A stretch of 64,000 nt of DNA from Bacillota bacterium (GTDB taxonomy: Bacteria; Bacillota; Dethiobacteria; DTU022). Every line of letters starts with the position of its first letter. Position 1 is the stretch's first letter. Shown piece after piece: positions 5,613 through 30,692 of this stretch. The notes under the pieces were generated by a model. That model searched no databases. It was given only the letters and a program-made list of their open reading frames with translations, and was not told the origin of the DNA. The stretch spans positions 2,107 through 66,106 of the forward strand of contig JAHYJM010000002.1 of NCBI GenBank assembly GCA_019428945.1, in the 5' to 3' direction. The position numbers and the translations under genes were made by a program.

Positions 5613-7409
5613 TTAACTATAAAGTTTTTCAATATCGTCAGCGTAAGTATCGATTACGTTACGACGTTTAAGCTTCATGGTCTGGGTAAGCATCCTGTTT
5701 TCAATCGTAAAATCTTCCCTTAAAAACAAGAATTTTTCTGGTATTTCATACCCTCCGAAAGTATTCCGCAAGTGAGCCTTAATCTCTTCTGTCATCATAT
5801 CTCTGAACTTTTCATTACTTAGTAAATCATCTGGATCGGCAGATACATTTTCTATAGCGGCCCAGCGGGCTGTTACCTCGAAATCGGGCAAAATCAGACA
5901 GATGTTATAGGGTTTTCCATCTCCATAAACCATGGCATTGGCAACATAAGGCATAAGCTTAACTTCCTCTTCAATTACTGCGGGAAAGACATACTTTCCA
6001 TTGGTAAGTTTGTATTGTTCCTTGATCCGTCCGGTAATCCATAAAAATCCGTCTTCATCAAATCTGCCCCGGTCACCGGTACGAAAACCACCATCGGCCA
6101 TGATCACTGCAGCAGTTTCTTCCGGTTTGTTGTGATAACCTTTCATGATATTCGGCCCGTAAACAATAATTTCACCATCTTCGGCTCCCTCTTCCGATAC
6201 GGTACGATCAATGACTACTTTTTGCCCGTCCAATACCTTGCCCACGCTGCCAATCCTCCAGTCGTTGGGGCTGTTCATTGTTACAGCCGGTGATGTTTCA
6301 GTAAGGCCGTAACAGTCGTAAATAGGAATACCAATATCGTAATAAAATTCTGCTATTTCTTTATTCATGGCGGCACTGGCGGTAAGAGCACCAGTAACTC
6401 TGCCACCCATCGCTTCACGTACTTTAGAAAAGACAATCTTATCAAGCAGTTTTTGTTTAAAATTGAGAAAACCGTTTGTTCTGCCTTCTTCCGCAAGTTC
6501 ACGCTTTTCCCTTGCTGTGGCACAGGCTAAGTCAAATAGCTTTTTCTTCAATCCACCGGCATCGCTCATTTTTAACTGTATGCCATCATAAATCTTGTTA
6601 AATACCCTTGGTACGGATATTAAGTATGTCGGCCTGATAATCTTTAAATCCTCAGCGAGAGTGGTGACGTCGCGCATAAATCCGAGTGACCCGCCAAACT
6701 GAATCCAGTTATTTAACTCGGCGCTCAGTGCATATGAATGGGCCCATGGCAACATGGATATGCCAACCTGGCTTTCAACCAGATCAGGGTATAGTCGATA
6801 CCCGGCACGTGAACAATAGGTCAGGTTGCCGTGTGTCAGAAGAACACCTTTAGGTTCGGCAGTGGTCCCTGATGTATAGATCAGCACTGCTACATCATCG
6901 AAAACAGGAATGAGAGGTTCAACCGGTGCTTCTTCGCCAATTTTCTCAAGTGCAGCCATACTGATTTCGCTGTCTGAATCAATAATAAATATCTTTTCCA
7001 GTGTTTCAATTTCATCGCAAAAGCCTTTGACTTCATCGTAAATATCCTGACTCGATACCATCAAGAATTTTACAGCGCTGTCCGCAATTATATATTTCCA
7101 GGTCTGGGTAAGTTCCTTCTCATACATTGGGATAAACCGGGCATTACGCCCATAGGTTGCATAGGCCAGGACTGCCCATTCAGGACGGTTTGGCGCTATT
7201 ATCCCAACAGCATCGTCCTTTCCTATGCCGAGTTTTGCCAGGCCTCCCCTGGCATTGTTTATTCGCTTGCCGATTTCACCATAACTAAGAGGGGCTATCC
7301 CTCCCTCGCTGTCATGCACCCAAAATAAAACATTATCGCTGAACTTTTTTTCGCTTTCAATCCACCAATCAACAAGGTTGTCAGGTTTTTCATACACCCA
7401 GGATGCCAT
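5613..7409 (-). CDS. Long-chain acyl-CoA synthetase (AMP-forming, FadD-like).
   Basis: 598 aa. The AMP-binding motif YTSGTTAEPKGVLLTHGNL, plus GYGLTET and a C-terminal lid, identify it. It is a paralog of the 7696-9495 gene. Confidence 0.85.
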   Translation of the reverse strand: MASWVYEKPDNLVDWWIESEKKFSDNVLFWVHDSEGGIAPLSYGEIGKRINNARGGLAKLGIGKDDAVGIIAPNRPEWAVLAYATYGRNARFIPMYEKELTQTWKYIIADSAVKFLMVSSQDIYDEVKGFCDEIETLEKIFIIDSDSEISMAALEKIGEEAPVEPLIPVFDDVAVLIYTSGTTAEPKGVLLTHGNLTYCSRAGYRLYPDLVESQVGISMLPWAHSYALSAELNNWIQFGGSLGFMRDVTTLAEDLKIIRPTYLISVPRVFNKIYDGIQLKMSDAGGLKKKLFDLACATAREKRELAEEGRTNGFLNFKQKLLDKIVFSKVREAMGGRVTGALTASAAMNKEIAEFYYDIGIPIYDCYGLTETSPAVTMNSPNDWRIGSVGKVLDGQKVVIDRTVSEEGAEDGEIIVYGPNIMKGYHNKPEETAAVIMADGGFRTGDRGRFDEDGFLWITGRIKEQYKLTNGKYVFPAVIEEEVKLMPYVANAMVYGDGKPYNICLILPDFEVTARWAAIENVSADPDDLLSNEKFRDMMTEEIKAHLRNTFGGYEIPEKFLFLREDFTIENRMLTQTMKLKRRNVIDTYADDIEKLYS

Positions 7410-7695: not shown

Positions 7696-9495
7696 TCAGT
7701 TATAGAGAGCAGCTATCTCTTTGGAATAGTTTTCGATGACTGCCCGTCTTTTTAATTTCATTGTCTGGGTCAGCATTTTATTGTCAACTGTAAAATCTTC
7801 ACCGATCAAGTAGAATTTCTCGGGAATTTCATAGCGCCCGAATGTTTCACTAAGATGATCTCTTATTTCATCCTCAAGGGTTTCTTTGAAATCTTCGTTC
7901 ATCAACAGATTAGGCGGATCATCTGAAACCCCTTTTTCTGCCGCCCAACGTGATGCTACTTCAAAATCAGGATAGATCAGGCACACATTATATGGCTTTC
8001 CGTCACCATAAACCATGGCATTTGCAACCTTGGGCAGTAGTTTTATTTCTTCCTCTATTGAAGCAGGAAAAACATATTTACCGTTCGAAAGCTTATACTG
8101 CTCTTTAATTCTGCCGGTAATCCAGAGAAAACCATCTTCATCAAGATGCCCACGATCGCCTGTGCGAAAACCACCGTCGGACATTATTACGGCTGCCGTC
8201 TCTTCCGGTTTATTATGGTAACCCTTCATCACATTGGGACCGTAAACAATTATTTCGCCATCATCGGCGCCTTCTTCAGAAACCGATTTATCAATTACCA
8301 CTTTCTGACCCTCCATAACTTTTCCCACACTGCCAATCTTCCAGGCTAGAGGGCTGTTCATACTTACACCAGGTGCTGTTTCCGTCAGCCCGTAACAGTC
8401 GTAGATTGAAATGCCGATATCAAAGAAAAACTCGGCTATTTCTTTGTTCATAACTGCACTTCCGGTCATAGCGCCGATAATCCTACCGCCAACAACTTCT
8501 CTTATCTTAGAAAAAACAATCTTGTCAAGTATGGCGTGCTTAACATTCACTGCCATGCTCATTTTTCCGGCATCGGCAAGCTCACGTTTTCTTTTTGCTG
8601 TAAGACAGGCGGCGTCAAATAATTTCTTTTTCATTCCACCTGCATCACTCATTCTCATCTGTATCACATCATAAACTTTATTAAAAACACGCGGCACGGA
8701 GACGAGAAAATGTGGTCTGATCAGCCGCATATCTTCGGCTAAAGTGCTGACATCCCGCATGAAACCAAAAGTGCCACCGAAATGTATCCATGATGTGAGC
8801 TCCGCTGTAATAGCATAAGAATGCGCCCAGGGCAGCATTGAAATACCAACCAGGCCTTCCCTTAGATCGGGAAAGAGCCTGAGACCTGTTAATGCACTGT
8901 ATGTAATGTTACCATGACTGAGTAAAACTCCTTTTGGATCAGCTGTCGTTCCGGAGGTATAGATTAATACAGCAATGTCGTCATAATTTGGTATTAGCGG
9001 TTCTACAGGATTTTTTTCACCATGCAATTCAAGTGATGCCAGGCTGTTTTCCCCATCTGATTCGATAATATATATCTTCTGAAGTGCAGGTATCTCTAAG
9101 GGAAAGTTTTTTACTTTTTCATATATTTCATGATTTGAGACGATGAGGAATTTCAACCCGCTATCCCGTATAATATATTTCCAGGTTTTTTCAAGTTCTT
9201 TTTCATACATGGGAACATATTTTGCATTCCTGCCAAAAACAGCAAAAGCAATTACCGCCCATTCAGGCCGGTTATTTGAAATAATTCCGACTGTATCGCC
9301 TTCTTTAACTCCATGCTCAGCCAATCCACCCCTGACATTGGCTATTCTGACACCAATATCTCCATAACTGATCGAATCAAGTCCGCCACGATTATTATGC
9401 ACTAAAAATAAGTCAGTATCCTGATATTTCTTTTCGCTTTCGATCCACCACTCTACAAGGTTGTCCGGTTTTTCGTAGCTCCACATATTTGCCAC
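7696..9495 (-). CDS. Long-chain acyl-CoA synthetase (AMP-forming), tandem paralog.
   Basis: 599 aa, YTSGTTADPKGVLLSHGNITY. It is colinear with 5613-7409 and roughly 65-70% identical along the whole length. Confidence 0.85.
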   Translation of the reverse strand: MANMWSYEKPDNLVEWWIESEKKYQDTDLFLVHNNRGGLDSISYGDIGVRIANVRGGLAEHGVKEGDTVGIISNNRPEWAVIAFAVFGRNAKYVPMYEKELEKTWKYIIRDSGLKFLIVSNHEIYEKVKNFPLEIPALQKIYIIESDGENSLASLELHGEKNPVEPLIPNYDDIAVLIYTSGTTADPKGVLLSHGNITYSALTGLRLFPDLREGLVGISMLPWAHSYAITAELTSWIHFGGTFGFMRDVSTLAEDMRLIRPHFLVSVPRVFNKVYDVIQMRMSDAGGMKKKLFDAACLTAKRKRELADAGKMSMAVNVKHAILDKIVFSKIREVVGGRIIGAMTGSAVMNKEIAEFFFDIGISIYDCYGLTETAPGVSMNSPLAWKIGSVGKVMEGQKVVIDKSVSEEGADDGEIIVYGPNVMKGYHNKPEETAAVIMSDGGFRTGDRGHLDEDGFLWITGRIKEQYKLSNGKYVFPASIEEEIKLLPKVANAMVYGDGKPYNVCLIYPDFEVASRWAAEKGVSDDPPNLLMNEDFKETLEDEIRDHLSETFGRYEIPEKFYLIGEDFTVDNKMLTQTMKLKRRAVIENYSKEIAALYN

Positions 9496-14050: not shown

Positions 14051-16171
14051 TTGGAGACCACTATTATGTTCGACTTGGGTCAATTTGTGGTCAGGTATCG
14101 CAAAACTATCCTGATCTTTTATTTAATTATATTAGTACCTGCAGTAATAAGTTACCTGGCAACCGGAGTTAATTATGACCTCGCCTCATACATGCCGGAG
14201 AATATGAATTCGCGCCGGGGAGAAAAAATTCTCGAAGAGGAATTTGATTTATCCGGCCTGGGGCTTCTGATGGCCAGGGATAAAAAAAACCATGAAATCG
14301 AAACATTGATTGTCAGTTTGATCAATGTTGGAGGTGTGGATGATGTTAAGTGGCTCGGAGATTACTCAGATCTATATGTACCAATCCAATTTACTGATCC
14401 TTTAATCCAGGCGCGGTTTGCAACCGAAGATACAGTATTGTTACAGATCCAATTTAGCGGCAATGCCCGCGCTCCTGAAACAACTGCCGCAGTAAGATCA
14501 ATACAGGAGTTGATCAGAAATGATGAAAACCTCTATTTTGGCGGAGAACCGCCCATTCTTACTGAAATGCAATCAGCTATAGATGAAGAAATTTTAGTTT
14601 ATACCGCAATAGCAGTAGTAATGATTCTCTTTGTTCTGACAATCTCAACATCACTTTACCTGGATCCGATTCTTTTCCTGCTGGCCGTCGGTATCGCGAT
14701 TATAATTAATATGGGCAGTAATATCTTCAGGGGAGAAATTTCTTTTCTCACAGCATCGATTGCAGCGGTTATGCAGTTAGGCATCTCTCTTGACTATGCA
14801 ATTTTCCTGATGCATCGACTTGAAGAGGAAAAACCAAAGTTTAAAAATATCGAAGAGGCCATGATGTCCACGGTCAATAAAACTTCAACCACTGTTGCGT
14901 CTAGCGCATTAACCACGATAGGCGGTTTTGCCGCTCTTATGGCTATGCAAAACGGGATTGGCAGTGATATGGGGTTTGTGCTGGGCAAGGGGATTGTGAT
15001 CAGCCTGATCGTAACATTGACACTGCTACCGGGAATGATAATATTTATCTACCCCTTCAGCAGACGATTTAAACATCCTATTCTGCTTCCCTCTTTCGGG
15101 AAGATATCGAAATACCTGGTAAAATACCGCTGGTTATTTCTGGTCGTATTTTTAATTATTGCAGTGCCGTCTTACCTGGGACAACAAAAAGTTGACTATT
15201 ACTATTCAAATGAAAACTACCTGCCTCGTAACTCTAAGGCGGTAGCTGATACAAATAGAATAATGAGTGAGTACGGGGCGGTCGATATCGCCTATGTGAT
15301 TATTCCAGACCATGGACGACGGGAAGAACGCAAATTAGTGGATCTGTTGAATAAAATTACCTTTGTTGATTCTGTAGTCGCAGTGTCCGAACAGGTTGAC
15401 CAGGCCCTGCCGGAAATAATTATTCCTGAAGAACTGATTAGCGAGTTCAGTGGGGGCAATTACCGCAACATAATAGTTTTCCTGTCTCCCGGAATCAGCG
15501 AAACCGAGTCATTTCAAACCATAGATCTTATCCGGCAAGTTACTAATACTTTGAACGAGGAATTTTACGTTACCGGACCTACAGCCATGACCCGGGATAT
15601 GGCTGCCCTGTCTCGGATAGACGCCGGACGGGTTGCCCTTGTTTCTTTAGCTGCAATCGGATTAATAGTCGGCATCAGTCTTAAATCATTATCACTACCG
15701 GTTGTACTGGTTATGGCAGTTCAACTTGCGATATGGATTAATATAAGTATTCTCTACTACCAGGACCAGGCTGTCTCTTCACTGACTCCAATTATAATTG
15801 GAGCGATTCAGCTCGGGGCAACAGTTGATTATGCGATTTTATATACATTAAGGTACAGGGAAAACTTGGAACTGCTCCCCGGCAGACTGAAGGCGGCAGT
15901 AAAAACAATTGAGGATACCGGTCGTTCAATTCTGACCAGTGCATTAATACTTTTTGCAGCCACTTTCAGCATATCAGTTATAGCAGGGATTAAAACTACC
16001 CGTGAAATGACCATGCTGATAGGACGAGGCGCGATGATCAGCATGATCGTAATGTTTACATTGTTGCCGGCGCTTCTTATCGTCTGCGACAAACTAATCG
16101 GCCAGTCAACAATTAAATGGCCCAACATAAAATCAAAGATGAGTAACTCTCCGGAGGGATTAGATCGATGA
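14051..16171 (+). CDS. MMPL/RND-superfamily membrane transporter. The start is probably the second Met at 14066.
   Basis: 706 aa with two 6-TM bundles, each followed by an extracytoplasmic domain. GISLDYAIFLMHRLEEE is MMPL-like. There is a GGAGACC RBS 7 nt upstream of the ATG at 14066. Confidence 0.8.
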   Translation: METTIMFDLGQFVVRYRKTILIFYLIILVPAVISYLATGVNYDLASYMPENMNSRRGEKILEEEFDLSGLGLLMARDKKNHEIETLIVSLINVGGVDDVKWLGDYSDLYVPIQFTDPLIQARFATEDTVLLQIQFSGNARAPETTAAVRSIQELIRNDENLYFGGEPPILTEMQSAIDEEILVYTAIAVVMILFVLTISTSLYLDPILFLLAVGIAIIINMGSNIFRGEISFLTASIAAVMQLGISLDYAIFLMHRLEEEKPKFKNIEEAMMSTVNKTSTTVASSALTTIGGFAALMAMQNGIGSDMGFVLGKGIVISLIVTLTLLPGMIIFIYPFSRRFKHPILLPSFGKISKYLVKYRWLFLVVFLIIAVPSYLGQQKVDYYYSNENYLPRNSKAVADTNRIMSEYGAVDIAYVIIPDHGRREERKLVDLLNKITFVDSVVAVSEQVDQALPEIIIPEELISEFSGGNYRNIIVFLSPGISETESFQTIDLIRQVTNTLNEEFYVTGPTAMTRDMAALSRIDAGRVALVSLAAIGLIVGISLKSLSLPVVLVMAVQLAIWINISILYYQDQAVSSLTPIIIGAIQLGATVDYAILYTLRYRENLELLPGRLKAAVKTIEDTGRSILTSALILFAATFSISVIAGIKTTREMTMLIGRGAMISMIVMFTLLPALLIVCDKLIGQSTIKWPNIKSKMSNSPEGLDR

Positions 16172-18108
16172 AAAATAAAATCTACTATTCAATAGCGATA
16201 ATAATAACTGTGATGTTTGCGCTGGGATCTGCAGCTTATTCAGTAGTTCCTGATCAGGGCGCTTCTCAGGAGGGTAGTTACAGACCCGCTTTTCTCGCAG
16301 AAAATGTTTTACCTGAAAATCCCAATGAAGATGAAAGCCCGGCAGTAAAAAATGAAACTGTATACGTTTTGCTTGATCATTATGGTGCAGTACTTGATCA
16401 GAGAATAGTTAACCGGATTTACGGACAGGAGATACCCGGGGCAGATTCAGTTTTCGATTACGGAGTTTATACATCCGTTGAAAATATGATTACCGGAGAT
16501 GAACCTGCTATAATTGATAACAGGATCATATGGGATAGTCAGCTGCTTAAAAATGAAGATATCTACTATGAGGGGACAATTAAACAGCAGCTGCCGGTAG
16601 ATATAACAATCACTTATTATCTAGACGGCATAGAGATCGAACCGGAAAACCTTGCCGGCAAATCAGGAAGACTCGAATTATTAATTAAATTTAAGAACAA
16701 CCTGAGCTATAATGAACCGCTAAGTTATTATGATTATGAAGGCAACCTGGTGACAAAACAAGATGATAACTACGTCCCACTTCTTGTGCAGGGAACCCTT
16801 GATGCAGATCTGAACCTATATTCCGAAATTGATCCCGGAAATGGCATGAGCCTGATAATGGGTCAGACAGCAAGCATAAATTTCATGGTTTTTCCTTACC
16901 CCGAAGATGAGATCATAATCAGCATGGATGGAATAGATATAGAACTTGAGAGAATAACTTTTATGATTATTCCTCAAATGCCGGCAGTGCCGGATGTGGA
17001 TATTGAAGATATGCTCATTCAAATGCTTGAAGGGATAAGGATGTTCAGTGAAGGGTTAGGGGAACTTTCAGCAGGAGCAGATCGTATCTTGCAGGGATTG
17101 ATTAGATTTAATGATGAAAGCAAACGCATGACTTCTGGTTTTGATGACCTCTACCCGGTTATAGAAGAATATAAGGCTCAGCGTGAAAATTTGCTGGGTA
17201 TGCTTGACTCAAGGGATATTGAAGAAATGCTGAACTCAATTGACAACCTGGAATTATTGCTTGCAGAAATTAAAAATATACCTGATGCCAGTGAACTGTC
17301 TTCTGAACTTAACCAGGCTGCAGCGGAAACAGAAGAACTGGGGATACAGCTGAATGAACTTAACCAAATATTTTCCGGGCTGGAAAAATCATCACGTCAG
17401 ATATATGTTGAAGCAGAAAAACTAATAAAAGAGAATGAGCCAGGCACTCCACTTCATGAATTAGGCCTCTTGTTAATAGTCCGTGAAGAAGAATTGCAGA
17501 GTGCATCCTATCAGAATTACCTGGCCGGGCAAAGTTTCTCTGCTCTGGAGAATAACCTCGATTCATTCCAGCAAAACTGGCTGAATAATTATATGCCGGG
17601 GTTAAACGCACTGGAAGAACTGAACGTCTTGTTAAAGGCTGGCGACATTCCCGACCGAATTAAGAGTTTCCGGCAAGAAATATCAAAGCTCAATGAATAT
17701 CTTGAAATGGCAGACCAATTTATTATTGAATCAGACTCAATGCTGGCCGAAATTGAAATGCTTCCGGAAGCCTTAGATCAAATGGAAGCAGGACAAAAAC
17801 GTTTAACTGACGGTATTAATGCCCTGCGTTCAGAAGGTTTAAAAGCGATGGAGGAAGGATTAATAGAAGGGATTAATGAATCCAGGGCAGGAAAGGCAAA
17901 AATTGAATTGATGAAAAAACTGGCGGATGATTACCGCTCATATGCTGATAATGAACATAACCGGTCAAGTGAAGTCCGCTTTATTATCCAAACTCCCAGG
18001 ATAGAAATTGTAAATATTGACAGTCCCGTTAGTGTGGATAATAATCAAGATTCCTCCGAAAGATGGACAGAAAATATTTTGGCAAAATTTGTTAATCTAT
18101 TCCAATAA
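16168..18108 (+). CDS. Membrane-anchored extracytoplasmic protein with a long coiled-coil, of unknown function. It is the partner of the MMPL transporter.
   Basis: 646 aa. The ATG overlaps the stop of the MMPL gene (ATGA). It has a single N-terminal TM (IYYSIAIIITVMFALGSAAY), a beta-rich middle region, then about 300 aa of helical repeats (LSAGADRILQGLIRFNDES..., LNELNQIFSGLEKSS...) reminiscent of YhgE/Pip/EsaA-type repeats. Confidence 0.5.
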   Translation: MKNKIYYSIAIIITVMFALGSAAYSVVPDQGASQEGSYRPAFLAENVLPENPNEDESPAVKNETVYVLLDHYGAVLDQRIVNRIYGQEIPGADSVFDYGVYTSVENMITGDEPAIIDNRIIWDSQLLKNEDIYYEGTIKQQLPVDITITYYLDGIEIEPENLAGKSGRLELLIKFKNNLSYNEPLSYYDYEGNLVTKQDDNYVPLLVQGTLDADLNLYSEIDPGNGMSLIMGQTASINFMVFPYPEDEIIISMDGIDIELERITFMIIPQMPAVPDVDIEDMLIQMLEGIRMFSEGLGELSAGADRILQGLIRFNDESKRMTSGFDDLYPVIEEYKAQRENLLGMLDSRDIEEMLNSIDNLELLLAEIKNIPDASELSSELNQAAAETEELGIQLNELNQIFSGLEKSSRQIYVEAEKLIKENEPGTPLHELGLLLIVREEELQSASYQNYLAGQSFSALENNLDSFQQNWLNNYMPGLNALEELNVLLKAGDIPDRIKSFRQEISKLNEYLEMADQFIIESDSMLAEIEMLPEALDQMEAGQKRLTDGINALRSEGLKAMEEGLIEGINESRAGKAKIELMKKLADDYRSYADNEHNRSSEVRFIIQTPRIEIVNIDSPVSVDNNQDSSERWTENILAKFVNLFQ

Positions 18109-27929: not shown

Positions 27930-27957
27930 AAAGCCGCCTGAATAAAGGCGGCTTTTT
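27930..27957. terminator. Bidirectional rho-independent terminator. It overlaps the apbE stop codon.
   Basis: aaagccgcc-tgaataaa-ggcggcttttt. Confidence 0.7.
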
Positions 27958-29044
27958 ATTGTTCAAGTTCATTTGACACTCCATAGCTGCGCAGCATATT
28001 TTTCATTCCATCGGTGATTTCTACACGGCCATCATGAAATACCCAGTAAACATCTACATTATCAAAACTATTCGCCAGAACCAGGCTCTCTTCGAAGGGG
28101 AGCAAAAATAGCGCGGTAGATAAAAAATCTGCCAGGGCCGCATCATCAGCTACTACTGTCAGCGCCCTGTAATATTCGCCGGGCATTAGGGTTACAGGAT
28201 CTATAATATGATGTAGAACCTGTCCGTTCACAACATAATAACGCTGGTAGTCGCCGCTGCTTACGACTGCTGCTTCCTGAACAAAAACAACATCCAGCAG
28301 TTTTTCTTCCTCATCCGATACTATAGAAGCGCTGGGATTTTGAATTCCGATTCCCCACTTTTCTCTGACACCATCAAGTGGCTTACCAATAGTTCTGATA
28401 TTTCCGCCAGGGCTGAGAACAGCTGAGTTCATACCCGCCGCTTCCATTTCAAGCGCCACCAGCTCAGTTGCAAATCCTTTTGCTACAGCACCCACGTCAA
28501 GGCTCATCCGCGAATCGGGCAAATATACTGTGTTGTTTTCAGCATCAACGATCACCTGATCAATATCAGTATGCTCTGCAGCTTCCCTGAGATCAGCCAT
28601 AGGAGGCAGCATGGCGTTAGCCGGATCTAATTCGGCCTCACTGCGATAGTAGTGCCAGATTCTCAGCACAGGACCCATGGCAATATTAGTTGTCTCACCT
28701 GTGCGAGCATACATGTCCTTTGAATATAAGATCAGGTCGATAATCTCACGTTCAACCTGAACCGGTTTTATTCCGGCATTATCATTAATTGTTTTAATAT
28801 TATTGATACCGTCATAGCTTAAATAAATATTATACAACTTATGCAGCTCAAGAAATCGAGCATGTATTAGTTCCATATAACGATCAAACTCATCTTCGCT
28901 ATCTGTATAAGCTACAACCTGCACCAGTGTATCGAATGTATCAAAAAATGATTCTGTATATCTTGTTTTTTCTGTCTGCGGATTGCTGGTACATCCGGCA
29001 ACTATAAAAAGAGCAATCAGCAGCAGCACAAATCTTGTTCTCAT
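27956..29044 (-). CDS. apbE: FAD:protein FMN transferase (ApbE family lipoprotein).
   Basis: 362 aa. The lipobox is LFIVAGC. The ApbE-family core ...AVAKGFATELVALEM...SSGDYQRY... is present. Confidence 0.85.
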   Translation of the reverse strand: MRTRFVLLLIALFIVAGCTSNPQTEKTRYTESFFDTFDTLVQVVAYTDSEDEFDRYMELIHARFLELHKLYNIYLSYDGINNIKTINDNAGIKPVQVEREIIDLILYSKDMYARTGETTNIAMGPVLRIWHYYRSEAELDPANAMLPPMADLREAAEHTDIDQVIVDAENNTVYLPDSRMSLDVGAVAKGFATELVALEMEAAGMNSAVLSPGGNIRTIGKPLDGVREKWGIGIQNPSASIVSDEEEKLLDVVFVQEAAVVSSGDYQRYYVVNGQVLHHIIDPVTLMPGEYYRALTVVADDAALADFLSTALFLLPFEESLVLANSFDNVDVYWVFHDGRVEITDGMKNMLRSYGVSNELEQ

Positions 29045-29136
29045 ATTTTATCCCTTCGTGGACAACCATCTATGATCAAGAAACACTCCCCCACCAAAGG
29101 CAGGGGAGCATTTAAAGATCATGACAATCCGGTTTT

Positions 29137-30231
29137 TTACCTGGCGTTGTCAAAAGCTTTCGCGACTGCTGCCTGATAGCTCTCTACAGTAATCGTTACG
29201 GAAGAGGTTAATTCCGGCACATCGGGAACGCTCTGGTGAGCATCGTCAACCACTTTAACCTGGAGGCCCAAGACTTCGTCTACAGTCTTTCCTACCATCC
29301 AGTCTTCCAAAACAACCATTTGTTCATACCATTCCATTTCGATTTCAGAAACACGTTTCATGCCGTAATCATCGCCCAGCTGAACTTTGGTTTTCGGCGC
29401 TTCTGCGCGATCGGAAGTTACCTGGCCGTCAGCATCATAATTAACCCTGATCTGGGCATTATCAATCAATACACCGACGATCACACCGTTGGAATCAAAA
29501 GCAACAGCAGCCATCGTGTTGTCCATCTGTGCCATGGGAAGAATATCATTATCTTCATCAAGGCCTCTGGATTTGGCAATTGAAAGATCTGTGCCTAAAC
29601 CGGCTGTTACTGCGTTTTCAACTTCGACAGAGTTATTATAAGCACTTTCAACTGCTGCGATGTAATCTTCAACGGTGATTGTTACCAGCGAAGTAAGTTC
29701 CGGAATATCAGGGACGTTCTGATGAGCATCGTCAACAACCTTCACCTGCAGGCTCTTGATTTCATCTACAGTCTGACCGATCATCCAGCTTTCAAATTCA
29801 GCCATCTGCTCATACCATTCCATTTCGATTTCAGAAACACGTTTCATACCATAATCATCGCCAAGTTCGGCTTTGGTCAGAACCGGAGCAGTGAGATCTG
29901 TTGCAACCTGCATTTCCTCATCAAATGCAACTCTTGTCTGAGCATTGTTAATCGATACACTGACAACCCTGCCTTCAGCATCAAAAAGCACTGCTGCCAT
30001 AACTACATCGGCCTGGGCCTGAGCGGTAACATCATCGCCTGCATCTCTCGACTTGGCGATAGATGTAACTACTCCAAGACCTAATCTTGATGATCCTGTT
30101 TCAACAACTTCTTCTTCCGGGGTTTCTTCCGGAGCTTCTTCCGGGGCTTCCCCGGCGGGCGCATCCCCGCAGCCGGCTATCATAACCAGAGCCAGGGTAA
30201 GCACCAGGGCTAACCATAATACTTTTTTCAT
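29137..30231 (-). CDS. Lipoprotein built from two tandem duplicated domains of about 160 aa each, of unknown function.
   Basis: 364 aa. The lipobox is MIAGC, followed by a Pro/Glu-rich linker. The two repeats share ...LGDDYGMKRVSEIEMEWYEQM...VKVVDDAHQ(N/S)VPD(I/V)PELTS.VTITVE.Y.AAV. The DNA repeats (about 29160-29620 and 29640-30100) are nearly identical over stretches such as ccattccatttcgatttcagaaacacgtttcat. Confidence 0.6.
   Translation of the reverse strand: MKKVLWLALVLTLALVMIAGCGDAPAGEAPEEAPEETPEEEVVETGSSRLGLGVVTSIAKSRDAGDDVTAQAQADVVMAAVLFDAEGRVVSVSINNAQTRVAFDEEMQVATDLTAPVLTKAELGDDYGMKRVSEIEMEWYEQMAEFESWMIGQTVDEIKSLQVKVVDDAHQNVPDIPELTSLVTITVEDYIAAVESAYNNSVEVENAVTAGLGTDLSIAKSRGLDEDNDILPMAQMDNTMAAVAFDSNGVIVGVLIDNAQIRVNYDADGQVTSDRAEAPKTKVQLGDDYGMKRVSEIEMEWYEQMVVLEDWMVGKTVDEVLGLQVKVVDDAHQSVPDVPELTSSVTITVESYQAAVAKAFDNAR
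29150..30110. repeat. Intragenic tandem duplication, two units of about 480 bp, inside the lipoprotein gene.
   Basis: The antisense ORFs 29236-29583 and 29722-30084 translate to near-identical peptides, MSIVNHFNLEAQDF.. and MSIVNNLHLQALDF... This reflects the direct repeat. Confidence 0.7.
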
Positions 30232-30409
30232 TAAATTACCTCCTCATAAAAATAACAGTTAGAGAATTTATTCACATTCCAAATTAATTGAAAATGAATA
30301 AGATTAAATCTACCTGTTTTATACAGTTTTAATTTTACTACATAACCATAACCAGGTCAAGCACTTCGAAATAATATATGTGATTAGCACGTGATAATAC
30401 ATTGAAATA

Positions 30410-30438
30410 TTGACAGATGTTCATTTATATCCTATTAT
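30410..30438 (+). promoter_or_regulatory. Sigma-A-type promoter upstream of the ferredoxin gene.
   Basis: TTGACA (30410-30415), a 17 bp spacer, then TATTAT(AAT). A GAGGTG RBS sits 8 nt before the ATG at 30486. Confidence 0.45.
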
Positions 30439-30485
30439 TATAATATTGGAATATAAGATATGAATTTGTTACGAGGTGCAACCAG

Positions 30486-30692
30486 ATGCCAAACTCAATG
30501 ATAACCCTAAATTACCAGAAATGCCGACCTGACCTCTGCAACAGCGGTTATTGCACTGCAATACCGGCATGCCCACTGAAGCTGATTGAGCAGGAAGAAA
30601 AATACGGATTCCCCATGACAAATTCAGCTGTTTGCAAAGGCTGTGCAAAATGTGTGACCGCCTGTCCTTTTAAAGCAATAACCCTATCCTGA
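30486..30692 (+). CDS. Small ferredoxin-like protein with Cys clusters.
   Basis: 68 aa. CRPDLCNSGYCTAIPACP and CKGCAKCVTACP form two Cys-rich clusters typical of 4Fe-4S ferredoxins. Confidence 0.65.
   Translation: MPNSMITLNYQKCRPDLCNSGYCTAIPACPLKLIEQEEKYGFPMTNSAVCKGCAKCVTACPFKAITLS

Follow-up and report, generated by a model that had tools for sequence, protein, structure and literature searches.

Known counterparts of the locus analysed here include PplA of Listeria and Cad of Enterococcus, surface lipoproteins of Firmicutes that comprise two homologous flavin-carrying domains, carry canonical SGAT motifs and are encoded beside an ApbE-type gene (FmnB), in a locus that also holds ndh2, eetA/B and dmk genes (PMC7074142; see also PMC9973259). 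In T. pallidum, the periplasmic FMN_bind lipoprotein TP0171 (Tp15) is flavinylated on a threonine by Ftp_Tp, an ApbE that is itself a lipoprotein. The pair is species-specific, the T. denticola enzyme leaving TP0171 unmodified (PMC4436053). In TP0171 one small domain bears a canonical motif of the NqrC type, and no pairing of the TP0171 gene with ftp is described. NqrC, RnfG and the other PF04205 proteins belong to membrane ion pumps as single-domain subunits with the canonical motif. The multi-flavinylated proteins SaFMN3 and CbFMN4 (PMC10339131; PDB 8p2a, 8p2b) have compact domains, of 81-89 residues in the solved chains. Flavinylation surveys detect substrates via PF04205 or the [ST]GA[ST] motif (PMC8238504).

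The window, a stretch of 64,000 nucleotides from a Bacillota bacterium, contains on its minus strand a gene for a 364-aa lipoprotein (29137-30231) and apbE (27956-29044), which encodes a 362-aa lipoprotein of the FAD:protein FMN transferase family (PF02424, E=4.7e-59). A 68-aa ferredoxin of the 2x[4Fe-4S] type (Fer4, E=1.3e-5) is encoded divergently on the plus strand (30486-30692). The limits of the three ORFs agree with those given in the earlier note, which had the lipoprotein gene following apbE in the same orientation. The shared orientation stands; as both genes lie on the minus strand, the lipoprotein precedes ApbE in transcription. The reading that we favour, and regard as likely when taken as a whole, is that of a two-gene cassette, lipoprotein to apbE, whose co-encoded ApbE would flavinylate Thr184 and Thr346 of the lipoprotein to give an extracytoplasmic two-flavin electron carrier. 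Compared by description, the previously drawn analogy with the PplA system of Listeria and Enterococcus holds for the architecture, a lipoprotein with two flavin-binding-type domains next to an ApbE/FmnB gene, but not for the motif, which is S-x-V-T with no SGAT, nor for the surroundings, where ApbE alone is linked and the ndh2/eet/dmk genes are missing.

Both minus-strand proteins carry the expected lipoboxes. The lipoprotein starts with a signal peptide and an IAGC lipobox read from the sequence, MKKVLWLALVLTLALVMIAG-C21 (30169-30231), and ApbE with MRTRFVLLLIALFIVAG-C (VAGC), which marks the enzyme as extracytoplasmic. In an alignment of 24 sequences the lipobox cysteine of the lipoprotein never varies, and over 117 sequences its conservation is at least 90%. 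The lipid anchor is joined to the first domain by an acidic Pro/Glu-rich linker (aa 22-47; 30091-30168, minus strand) of low model confidence (pLDDT 53-62), a region with a 12-nt tandem repeat at 30111-30150. Self-alignment and a repeated secondary-structure pattern delimit domain 1 (aa 51-201; 29629-30081, minus strand) and domain 2 (aa 211-363; 29143-29601, minus strand). These repeats of 151-153 aa have strands of 13-16 residues in the predicted model, whose whole-chain pTM of 0.84 suggests that the placement of the domains relative to each other is predicted with confidence. Two such domains are found in 348 proteins of the family, four in 10 and six in 2. Some sources name homologues in this family "major membrane immunogen lipoprotein".

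The predicted model of the lipoprotein has the three-dimensional fold of FMN_bind proteins (3o6u, 2kzx, NqrC, RnfG). Domain searches do not register this relationship. Against Pfam and NCBIfam the lipoprotein gave only sub-threshold noise (DUF2283, DUF7258, Amphi-Trp), its 117 close homologues returned the same noise, and PF04205 was matched by none of these proteins even at E<=1. The putative flavin-attachment motif departs from the textbook form, and the standard domain models therefore miss the family. A Foldseek search with the whole lipoprotein model found nothing, and profile matches to PDB sequences were mostly to designed repeat proteins and were discarded as spurious, 2kzx being the only meaningful weak match. 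PF04205 matches do occur in family members with the canonical motif. The earlier suggestion of a different ApbE substrate family is not supported: the lipoproteins belong to the FMN_bind superfamily, as a divergent branch that grades into members recognized by Pfam. NqrC and RnfG differ from the present protein, which stands alone as a lipoprotein, has two enlarged domains and escapes PF04205.

The family most probably corresponds, as far as a comparison by description goes, to the FMN-bind2 subtype sketched by Huang, Meheust, Barquera & Light (2024, mSystems, PMC11334425) in one paragraph based on an AlphaFold model and BLAST searches. As portrayed there, FMN-bind2 domains are of ~160 aa (against ~120 aa for FMN-bind1) and come in even numbers, 2 and 4, to which the present family adds 6; they have extended beta-strands, and their predicted packing is sheet against sheet, giving a pseudo-symmetric unit that holds two sites for flavin. 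Their exemplar, NTW96865.1, has no InterPro accession in Table S1 of that paper, just as no Pfam match is obtained here. The paragraph on the class gives no motif, synteny statistics or biochemistry; the variant motif and the 89% ApbE linkage reported below come from the present analysis.

The repeats do lack the canonical motif, as previously stated: no [ST]GA[ST] is found in the lipoprotein. What had been overlooked is that the canonical position is occupied by a close variant, the essentially invariant [DE]-L-x-[STA]-x-V-[TS]. The first copy, E-L-T-S-L-V-T (aa 178-184; 29680-29700, minus strand), ends in the predicted FMN acceptor Thr184 (codon 29680-29682), and the second, E-L-T-S-S-V-T (aa 340-346; 29194-29214, minus strand), in the predicted acceptor Thr346 (codon 29194-29196). 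The acidic residue at -6, the serine at -3 and the threonine at 0 are kept, whereas other residues stand in for G(-2) and A(-1). The valine and threonine of the motif are invariant in 117 sequences. Of 758 domains, 725 have T, 32 have S and one has N at position 0; at -6, D occurs in 412 and E in 329; and at -1, V occurs in 630, C in 59 and A in 40. The register agrees between approaches, with non-significant scores in both profile comparisons: the family profile places "tslvtI" on "ISGATI" of 2kzx (E=0.21), and hhalign against five canonical FMN_bind lipoproteins sets LtSxVTitV on isGATits (E=0.12), in agreement with the other evidence.

Support for the position also comes from within the family. 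Canonical D-x-x-[ST]-G-A-T motifs occur in both repeats of P0270, P0299, P0302, P0308-P0311 and P0324, all of the same two-repeat family, with one repeat deviating at -6 or -3 in P0309, P0310 and P0311. Proteins with the canonical motif in both repeats account for seven of the 11 family members listed with a PF04205 match. Moreover, both forms coexist within single proteins, as in P0214, P0252 and P0213, and P0141 mixes DLASGAT, DLASSVT, DLASSAT and DLASSVT. The possible link to flavinylation put forward earlier is supported in part: the same family has members with canonical motifs at the homologous position.

These data bear on the possibility that the lipoprotein is a degenerate FMN_bind relative, no longer covalently flavinylated, which might act as a structural or antigenic lipoprotein at the surface or bind something else, with ApbE serving RnfG/RnfD-like substrates elsewhere. 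We consider this unlikely. The canonical G-A core is indeed missing from both repeats, Pfam FMN_bind misses all 117 close members, and in Gelria a weak-scoring FMN_bind protein is encoded two genes beyond ApbE. Furthermore, single changes in the canonical motif lower flavinylation: a mutational study cited in PMC12052999 is reported there to have found ~50% flavinylation for either A->V or G->A and a minor effect for D->A, figures that come from a heterologous system and from single changes, while the variant motif replaces both Gly and Ala. The same figures can be read in favour of the cassette, since about half of the flavinylation survives either substitution. Against loss of function, Thr or Ser is kept in 757/758 copies, an acidic residue at -6 in 741/758, and Val, Cys or Ala at -1; a functionless domain would not be expected to retain the motif residues so widely. 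The interchange of canonical and variant motifs inside single proteins and the ApbE synteny in 89% of loci across distant genera, where nothing else is conserved, also count against it. A scan of ~50 ORFs of the window for [ST]GA[ST] gave none, so no other candidate substrate is apparent in the window.

The pairing of lipoprotein and ApbE, originally noted for this locus, extends well beyond it. In 68 of the 76 informative species-representative loci (89%), ranging from Syntrophomonadaceae to Paenibacillus, the lipoprotein gene is followed immediately, on its own strand, by ApbE; ApbE is not adjacent in the other 8/76, nor in Alkalicella. No other gene cluster is common to more than 13/80 loci. 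Links to other parts of flavin electron transfer also occur: an Ndh2-like gene whose product has a membrane domain at its C-terminus adjoins the lipoprotein in 6/80 orthologous loci, a small canonical FMN_bind lipoprotein is encoded nearby in 5, and in P0097 a canonical FMN_bind domain is fused to the two repeats. Judging by these neighbourhoods, the two-gene lipoprotein-ApbE cassette is widespread in anaerobic Firmicutes, and the adjacent ApbE probably attaches flavin to the lipoprotein. A Clostridium paper (ISME J 2026), considered as a possible match, covers NosR-ApbE, which is another family.

The enzyme matches PF02424 over its full length (profile positions 1-266 of 266, E=4.7e-59). Among solved structures, its nearest relatives are T. 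pallidum Ftp (4ifu/7mgt, E ~1e-32) and then Listeria FmnB (7esa, 1.6e-28). Two stretches that may comprise the conserved catalytic His and metal-binding Asp/Thr region, HHIIDP (aa 278) and ADFLSTA (aa 305), line up, segment against segment, with identical or similar sequence in T. pallidum Ftp. The proximity to Ftp, of a class that hydrolyses FAD, could suggest a flavin-trafficking pair, in which ApbE would be mainly an Ftp-type FAD pyrophosphatase, while non-covalent binding of free FMN or riboflavin by the lipoprotein would serve to scavenge the flavin, store it or pass it to a transporter. The FMN_bind fold could in principle hold a flavin in this way, and a gene for a membrane electron-transfer partner was not found nearby in the window. 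However, both Ftp classes flavinylate protein substrates if offered one (PMC4767422), no transporter gene is conserved in the orthologous neighbourhoods, and it is hard to see what an invariant Thr/Ser at the acceptor position would contribute if binding were non-covalent. Such a pair is therefore quite improbable.

Gene order, lipoboxes, fold, conservation of the motif, its positional homology with canonical sites and the ApbE synteny are findings of the analysis; covalent flavinylation is what we infer, and so are the electron donor and acceptor and the role in physiology. In the mechanism that we propose, the lipoprotein would be exported and lipid-anchored at Cys21, with its acidic Pro/Glu-rich tether holding the domains off the membrane. 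The two divergent FMN_bind domains of ~155 aa would pack as one pseudo-symmetric unit of the "FMN-bind2" type. ApbE, a lipoprotein on the same membrane face, would use FAD and Mg2+ to transfer FMN through a phosphoester linkage to Thr184 and Thr346, the last residues of the variant [DE]-L-x-[ST]-x-V-T that replaces D-x-x-[ST]-G-A-[ST]. The resulting two-flavin protein may serve as an electron relay outside the cytoplasm, receiving electrons from a membrane donor encoded elsewhere and passing them on to acceptors that are extracellular or soluble, or to exported reductases. Within the window, Pfam annotation gave no electron donor or acceptor gene nearby; ndh2 and eetA/eetB, for which a check had been suggested, as well as dmkA/B and fmnA, were absent from 27 neighbouring ORFs covering ~10.9-43.7 kb and from one more at ~47 kb.

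The ferredoxin had been proposed as a third component, and the lipoprotein as the product of a recent tandem duplication. The genes are adjacent, and the promoter reported for the ferredoxin gene was recovered as a promoter-like site, TTGACA-17-TATTAT (30410-30438, plus strand), with 11/12 consensus matches. The ferredoxin is also kept at this position in six related loci (L006, L007, L010, L021, L057 and L083), all but one labelled Syntrophomonadaceae and the sixth labelled only Bacillota. Yet it carries no signal peptide and is missing from 74/80 loci; it was rejected as part of the module and is a neighbour only.

As for the duplication, the repeat identity of about 70% was an overestimate, the values being 63% for protein and 67% for DNA (aa 51-201 versus 211-363). 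Of the long near-identical DNA stretches described previously, one short tract is borne out: the longest exact in-register match spans 38 nt, and identity peaks at 88% in a window of 20 codons. The two-repeat architecture is common to 117/117 aligned homologues and 348/373 relatives, and repeat 1 is nearest to the repeat 1 of another protein in 112/117 cases. With repeats that split in this way across homologues and an overall DNA identity of 67%, the duplication predates the family: a recent origin was rejected, and on this comparison the duplication is ancient. The repeats are kept partly alike by homogenisation, probably through gene conversion. Tested codon by codon, this window by itself gave no significant signal of conversion (12/17 vs 37/71, p=0.13), and significance was reached only on pooling 20 orthologues, which are non-independent. 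A three-gene redox module of ferredoxin, ApbE and a recently duplicated lipoprotein, with a substrate family unrelated to FMN_bind, is thus very improbable, all the more given the FMN_bind fold and the gradation of the family into FMN_bind members recognized by Pfam.

A broader proposal, for which we see roughly even chances, is that [DE]-L-x-[STA]-x-[VC]-[TS] constitutes a genuine second ApbE recognition code, with a dedicated ApbE lineage, a travelling two-gene cassette and a large unannotated family of two-flavin lipoproteins. Among the papers available to the analysis, none relevant to a non-canonical motif for flavinylation was found. The family counts at least 1700 clusters at 50% identity and at least 370 species genomes, and the PF04205 and [ST]GA[ST] filters both miss it, though it is large and has no linkage tighter than that to ApbE. 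If the second code is true, this invisibility would mean that flavin-based extracytoplasmic electron transfer in anaerobic Firmicutes has been under-counted, and it would account for some of the "orphan ApbE" genomes of PMC8238504. Were the variant motif flavinylated, the accepted ApbE motif would be too narrow and flavin-tagging tools would gain a second sequence. Many alkaliphilic, metal-reducing and syntrophic Firmicutes, including Geosporobacter, Alkaliphilus, Anaerobranca, Syntrophomonadaceae and Paenibacillus, would also acquire a candidate surface electron carrier. Were it not flavinylated, a flavin domain would have been repurposed and yet stayed genetically bound to ApbE, which would itself need an explanation.

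Finally, several non-coding elements accompany the cassette. A promoter-like site, TTGACC-17-TAAAAT (30332-30360, minus strand), lies ~100 nt upstream of the lipoprotein start, a consensus match only (10/12). The region between the lipoprotein gene and apbE (29045-29136, minus strand) can form a stem-loop with an MFE of -37.7 kcal/mol (z = -5.0), none of 200 shuffles folding as well. The orthologous intergenic regions are structured in 48/54 loci (z < -2, mononucleotide shuffles), and the stem-loop may act as a leaky terminator or as a hairpin that stabilises the mRNA. A terminator scan also located a GC-rich palindromic hairpin at 27930-27955, at the 3' ends of apbE and a convergent acyl-CoA synthetase gene, which is likely to be a bidirectional terminator.

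The three open reading frames of the earlier note are present: apbE (27956-29044, minus strand; 362 aa, PF02424 E=4.7e-59 across the whole profile), the gene of the 364-aa two-repeat lipoprotein (29137-30231, minus strand) and, on the plus strand, the gene of a 68-aa Fer4 protein, the ferredoxin (30486-30692). Both ApbE and the 364-aa protein begin with a signal peptide ending in a lipobox Cys. The order had been given as ApbE followed by the lipoprotein; on the minus strand the lipoprotein gene comes first, and ApbE is therefore the downstream gene of the cassette. The TTGACA-17-TATTAT promoter-like site was located, as a sequence match, at 30410-30438 (plus strand). A weaker one, TTGACC-17-TAAAAT, points towards the lipoprotein gene (30360-30332, minus strand), and at 27930-27955 the unit ends in a palindromic, terminator-like hairpin. 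The lipoprotein linker (aa 22-47) contains three tandem units of 12 nt (resembling CTTCTTCCGGGG on the plus strand, 30111-30150), encoding an acidic P-E-E-A/T-rich stretch that joins the lipid anchor to domain 1, and is highly variable in length and sequence among homologues.

The lipoprotein matched nothing in Pfam or NCBIfam, and the FMN_bind search (PF04205) proposed for the repeats was negative, as it was with the Pfam model for all 117 homologues, even at E<=1. Fold comparison places the domains beside the stand-alone FMN_bind protein 2kzx (score 8.2), 3o6u (8.1; the FMN-bind1 exemplar of PMC11334425), 8p2a and 8p2b (7.7 and 5.0; each a domain of a multi-flavinylated protein), RnfG (7zc6_G, 5.3) and NqrC (3lwx, 4.6). 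The domains are thus very probably FMN_bind relatives.

Both repeats carry VPD[VI]PELTS-x-VT-I immediately ahead of the C-terminal helix, with ELTSLVT at aa 178-184 in repeat 1 and ELTSSVT at aa 340-346 in repeat 2. The earlier note had seen no canonical flavinylation motif in the repeats, and indeed no [ST]GA[ST] occurs in the lipoprotein or in any of the roughly 50 ORFs of the window. Two mutually independent alignments, each non-significant alone, put the variant motif on the canonical flavinylation site: the family profile pairs 'tslvtI' with 'ISGATI' of 2kzx (E=0.21), and hhalign matches LtSxVTitV to isGATits in canonical FMN_bind lipoproteins of small size (E=0.12). The decisive evidence pointing to motif homology comes from inside the family, where distant members carry the canonical motif at exactly the same profile position as the variant (DLISGAT and DAISGAT in protein P0270; DVLTGAT and DLVTGAT in P0302 and P0308). 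Such canonical-motif members account for 7 of the 11 family members for which a Pfam FMN_bind match is listed, and both forms are mixed within single proteins, for example P0141 (DLASGAT, DLASSVT, DLASSAT, DLASSVT).

Across 758 domains, the predicted acceptor (position 0) is T in 725, S in 32 and N in 1; position -1 is V in 630, C in 59 and A in 40, position -6 is D in 412 and E in 329, and position -5 is L in 518 of a 558-domain subset. This gives [DE]-L-x-[STA]-x-[VCA]-[TS] as the family motif. In the canonical ApbE motif, D-x-x-[ST]-G-A-[ST], A->V and G->A each leave approximately half-maximal flavinylation, and D->A has little effect (reviewed in PMC12052999). By analogy with these single substitutions, the variant motif, which combines several changes, would be chemically plausible. 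It could be proposed that the domain is degenerate and has lost flavinylation; this is unlikely, being hard to square with an almost invariant acceptor residue and with motifs that switch between canonical and variant forms.

Among known systems, the best match is the FMN-bind2 subtype (Huang et al. 2024, PMC11334425). According to the available part of that paper, FMN-bind2 domains of ~160 aa occur in twos or fours, were identified by BLAST and are predicted to form pairs, each a pseudo-symmetric unit that has two flavin sites, the exemplar having no InterPro accession in the table; this part holds no motif, linkage statistics or biochemistry for the subtype. The lipoprotein family fits every point described there, the match being to the description and not to the exemplar sequence. 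With this match, and with canonical FMN_bind motif members in the family, the 'different ApbE substrate family' suggested previously is not retained. ApbE with an exported FMN-binding lipoprotein is a known kind of system; what appears new is a domain subtype missed by standard models and its non-canonical acceptor motif. The lipoprotein has functional analogues in Listeria PplA and Enterococcus Cad; these, unlike the present cassette, have canonical SGAT motifs and a larger locus (PMC7074142).

The pairing of ApbE and lipoprotein is kept in other genomes. From 80 species-representative loci carrying a family gene, 76 had sufficient downstream DNA to judge, and 68 of these have an ApbE gene downstream on the same strand, 77-656 nt away and 52-74% identical to the window's ApbE. 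Loci L009, L029, L050, L054, L065, L068, L077 and L080 are without an adjacent ApbE, as is Alkalicella. When all neighbouring ORFs of the loci were clustered, no further conserved partner was found, the next commonest cluster being a generic ABC ATPase (13 loci). In 6/80 loci the cassette adjoins the gene of an Ndh2-like flavoprotein (578 aa) with a hydrophobic membrane extension at its C-terminus, an arrangement that recalls the Ndh2 dedicated to extracellular electron transfer in the Listeria locus; the gene is divergent and ~400 nt upstream in L022:5851-7587, L064:5846-7582, L069:5800-7554 and L076:5846-7582, and also adjoins the cassette in L024 and L072. Five loci have a small lipoprotein with the canonical FMN_bind motif D-A-[VI]-[AS]-G-A-T nearby (L016:8720-9118, L038:16133-16477, L042:13024-13365, L048:11722-12057, L078:7518-7958), and in P0097 (458 aa), a predicted three-flavin protein, a canonical FMN_bind domain is fused N-terminal to two variant-motif domains.

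In the window itself, the search for ndh2 and eetAB homologs, extended to dmk, found none among the 27 annotated neighbour ORFs at ~10.9-43.7 kb (plus one at ~47 kb); the 27 belong to ordinary metabolism and transport. The ferredoxin, previously taken as a member of the candidate module, is treated here as a neighbour, because only 6 loci have it in the divergent position (five labelled Syntrophomonadaceae, one only Bacillota) and it has no export signal. Its first cluster is unusually spaced (C-x4-C-x4-C-x5-C-P) and the second is a standard C-x2-C-x2-C-x3-C-P; in NCBIfam the protein is most similar to RLI-type and molybdoenzyme beta-subunit Fe-S domains.

The closest solved relatives of the ApbE are T. 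pallidum Ftp (4ifu, 7mgt; E ~1e-32), Listeria FmnB (7esa, 1.6e-28) and T. maritima TM1553, and its HHIIDP and ADFLSTA segments align to conserved regions in these enzymes. Both biochemical Ftp/ApbE classes transfer FMN to protein substrates (PMC4767422). The lipoprotein TP0171 is flavinylated by Ftp_Tp and not by the T. denticola enzyme, a precedent for matched enzyme-substrate pairs (PMC4436053).

From the fold, motif homology, conservation and synteny observed here, we infer the chemistry and physiology of the pair as follows. The lipoprotein would be exported, acylated at Cys21 and carried on its acidic Pro/Glu linker, with its two domains assembling as one unit. ApbE, a lipoprotein on the same membrane face, would transfer FMN from FAD onto Thr184 and Thr346, and the resulting two-flavin protein would take electrons from a membrane donor whose gene lies elsewhere and hand them to extracytoplasmic acceptors. 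Covalent flavinylation of the domains by this ApbE is probable, and a role in extracytoplasmic electron transfer is somewhat favoured; any particular acceptor, such as Fe(III), is doubtful. A flavin-trafficking pair with non-covalent binding would leave the invariant Thr without explanation and seems quite improbable.

The repeat pair is real, although its protein identity, put at ~70%, was too high: aa 51-201 and 211-363 share 63% amino acid and 67% nucleotide identity over 151 aligned positions. The long near-identical DNA stretches reduce to one short tract, with a longest exact in-register run of 38 nt, covering MKRVSEIEMEWYE, and a best 20-codon window 88% identical. Homology searching returned at least 910 proteins, nearly all of 340-390 aa; an exhaustive profile search, clustered at 50% identity, gave 1714 clusters with E<=1e-3 (562 with E<=1e-30), and scanning of genomes placed relatives in no fewer than 370 species representatives, ranging from Syntrophomonadaceae to Alkaliphilus, Tissierella, Clostridium and Paenibacillus. 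Among 373 relatives, 348 have two repeats, 10 four and 2 six. The nearest relative of repeat 1 is the repeat 1 of another protein in 112 of 117 aligned proteins, and its own repeat 2 in only 5. By this kinship and the family-wide two-repeat form, the duplication is ancient and not recent. A three-gene module with a recent duplication, as first proposed, is contradicted by the FMN_bind fold, the locus survey, the repeat kinship and the motif continuum in the family, and is highly improbable.

A concerted-evolution signal is superimposed, as the two repeats within a protein resemble each other more than repeat 1 resembles repeat 2 across proteins (0.78 vs 0.63 in the C-terminal half; 0.58 vs 0.51 in the N-terminal half). 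The 21-aa tract LGDDYGMKRVSEIEMEWYEQM occurs unchanged in both repeats (29803-29865 and 29317-29379, minus strand) and includes the 38-nt match; in this LGDxYGM...EWYEQ tract, lineage-specific residues are common to both repeats of the same orthologue. Synonymous codon identity between repeats is higher there than in the rest (246/332 vs 1005/1763, p=2e-9, pooled over 20 orthologues at non-independent loci); this window taken singly shows no significant excess (12/17 vs 37/71, p=0.13). Among orthologues, the two repeats of a protein are between 59% and 82% identical. Together, this suggests an old duplication with recurrent local intragenic gene conversion. The two-domain unit is itself multiplied in places, as a tandem pair of lipoprotein genes ahead of ApbE (L044, L056, L084) or as four-/six-domain proteins; multiplied-domain proteins include P0121 (991 aa), P0126 (647 aa) and P0133 (983 aa), the last of which has Cys-Ser where the acceptor would lie (A-S-C-S).

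The spacer of 92 nt that separates apbE from the lipoprotein gene (29045-29136, minus strand) is predicted to form a long stem-loop (-37.7 kcal/mol, z=-5.0), with a U-rich run after the inner GC-rich stem. Orthologous spacers (L008-L085) are unusually structured in 48/54 loci, with a median z of -4.2 against mononucleotide shuffles, a rough control. Speculatively, the hairpin may act as a leaky terminator or stabiliser, setting substrate in excess over enzyme.

Elsewhere in the window, two adjacent ~598-aa ORFs (5613-7409 and 7696-9495, minus strand) have very similar N-termini, MASWVYEKPDNLVDWWIESEKKF and MANMWSYEKPDNLVEWWIESEKKY, and look like tandem paralogues. A 646-aa ORF (16168-18108, plus strand), with no Pfam match at E<=1e-4, lies between an MMPL-family transporter gene (14051-16171), whose stop it overlaps, and a TetR regulator gene, which it precedes.
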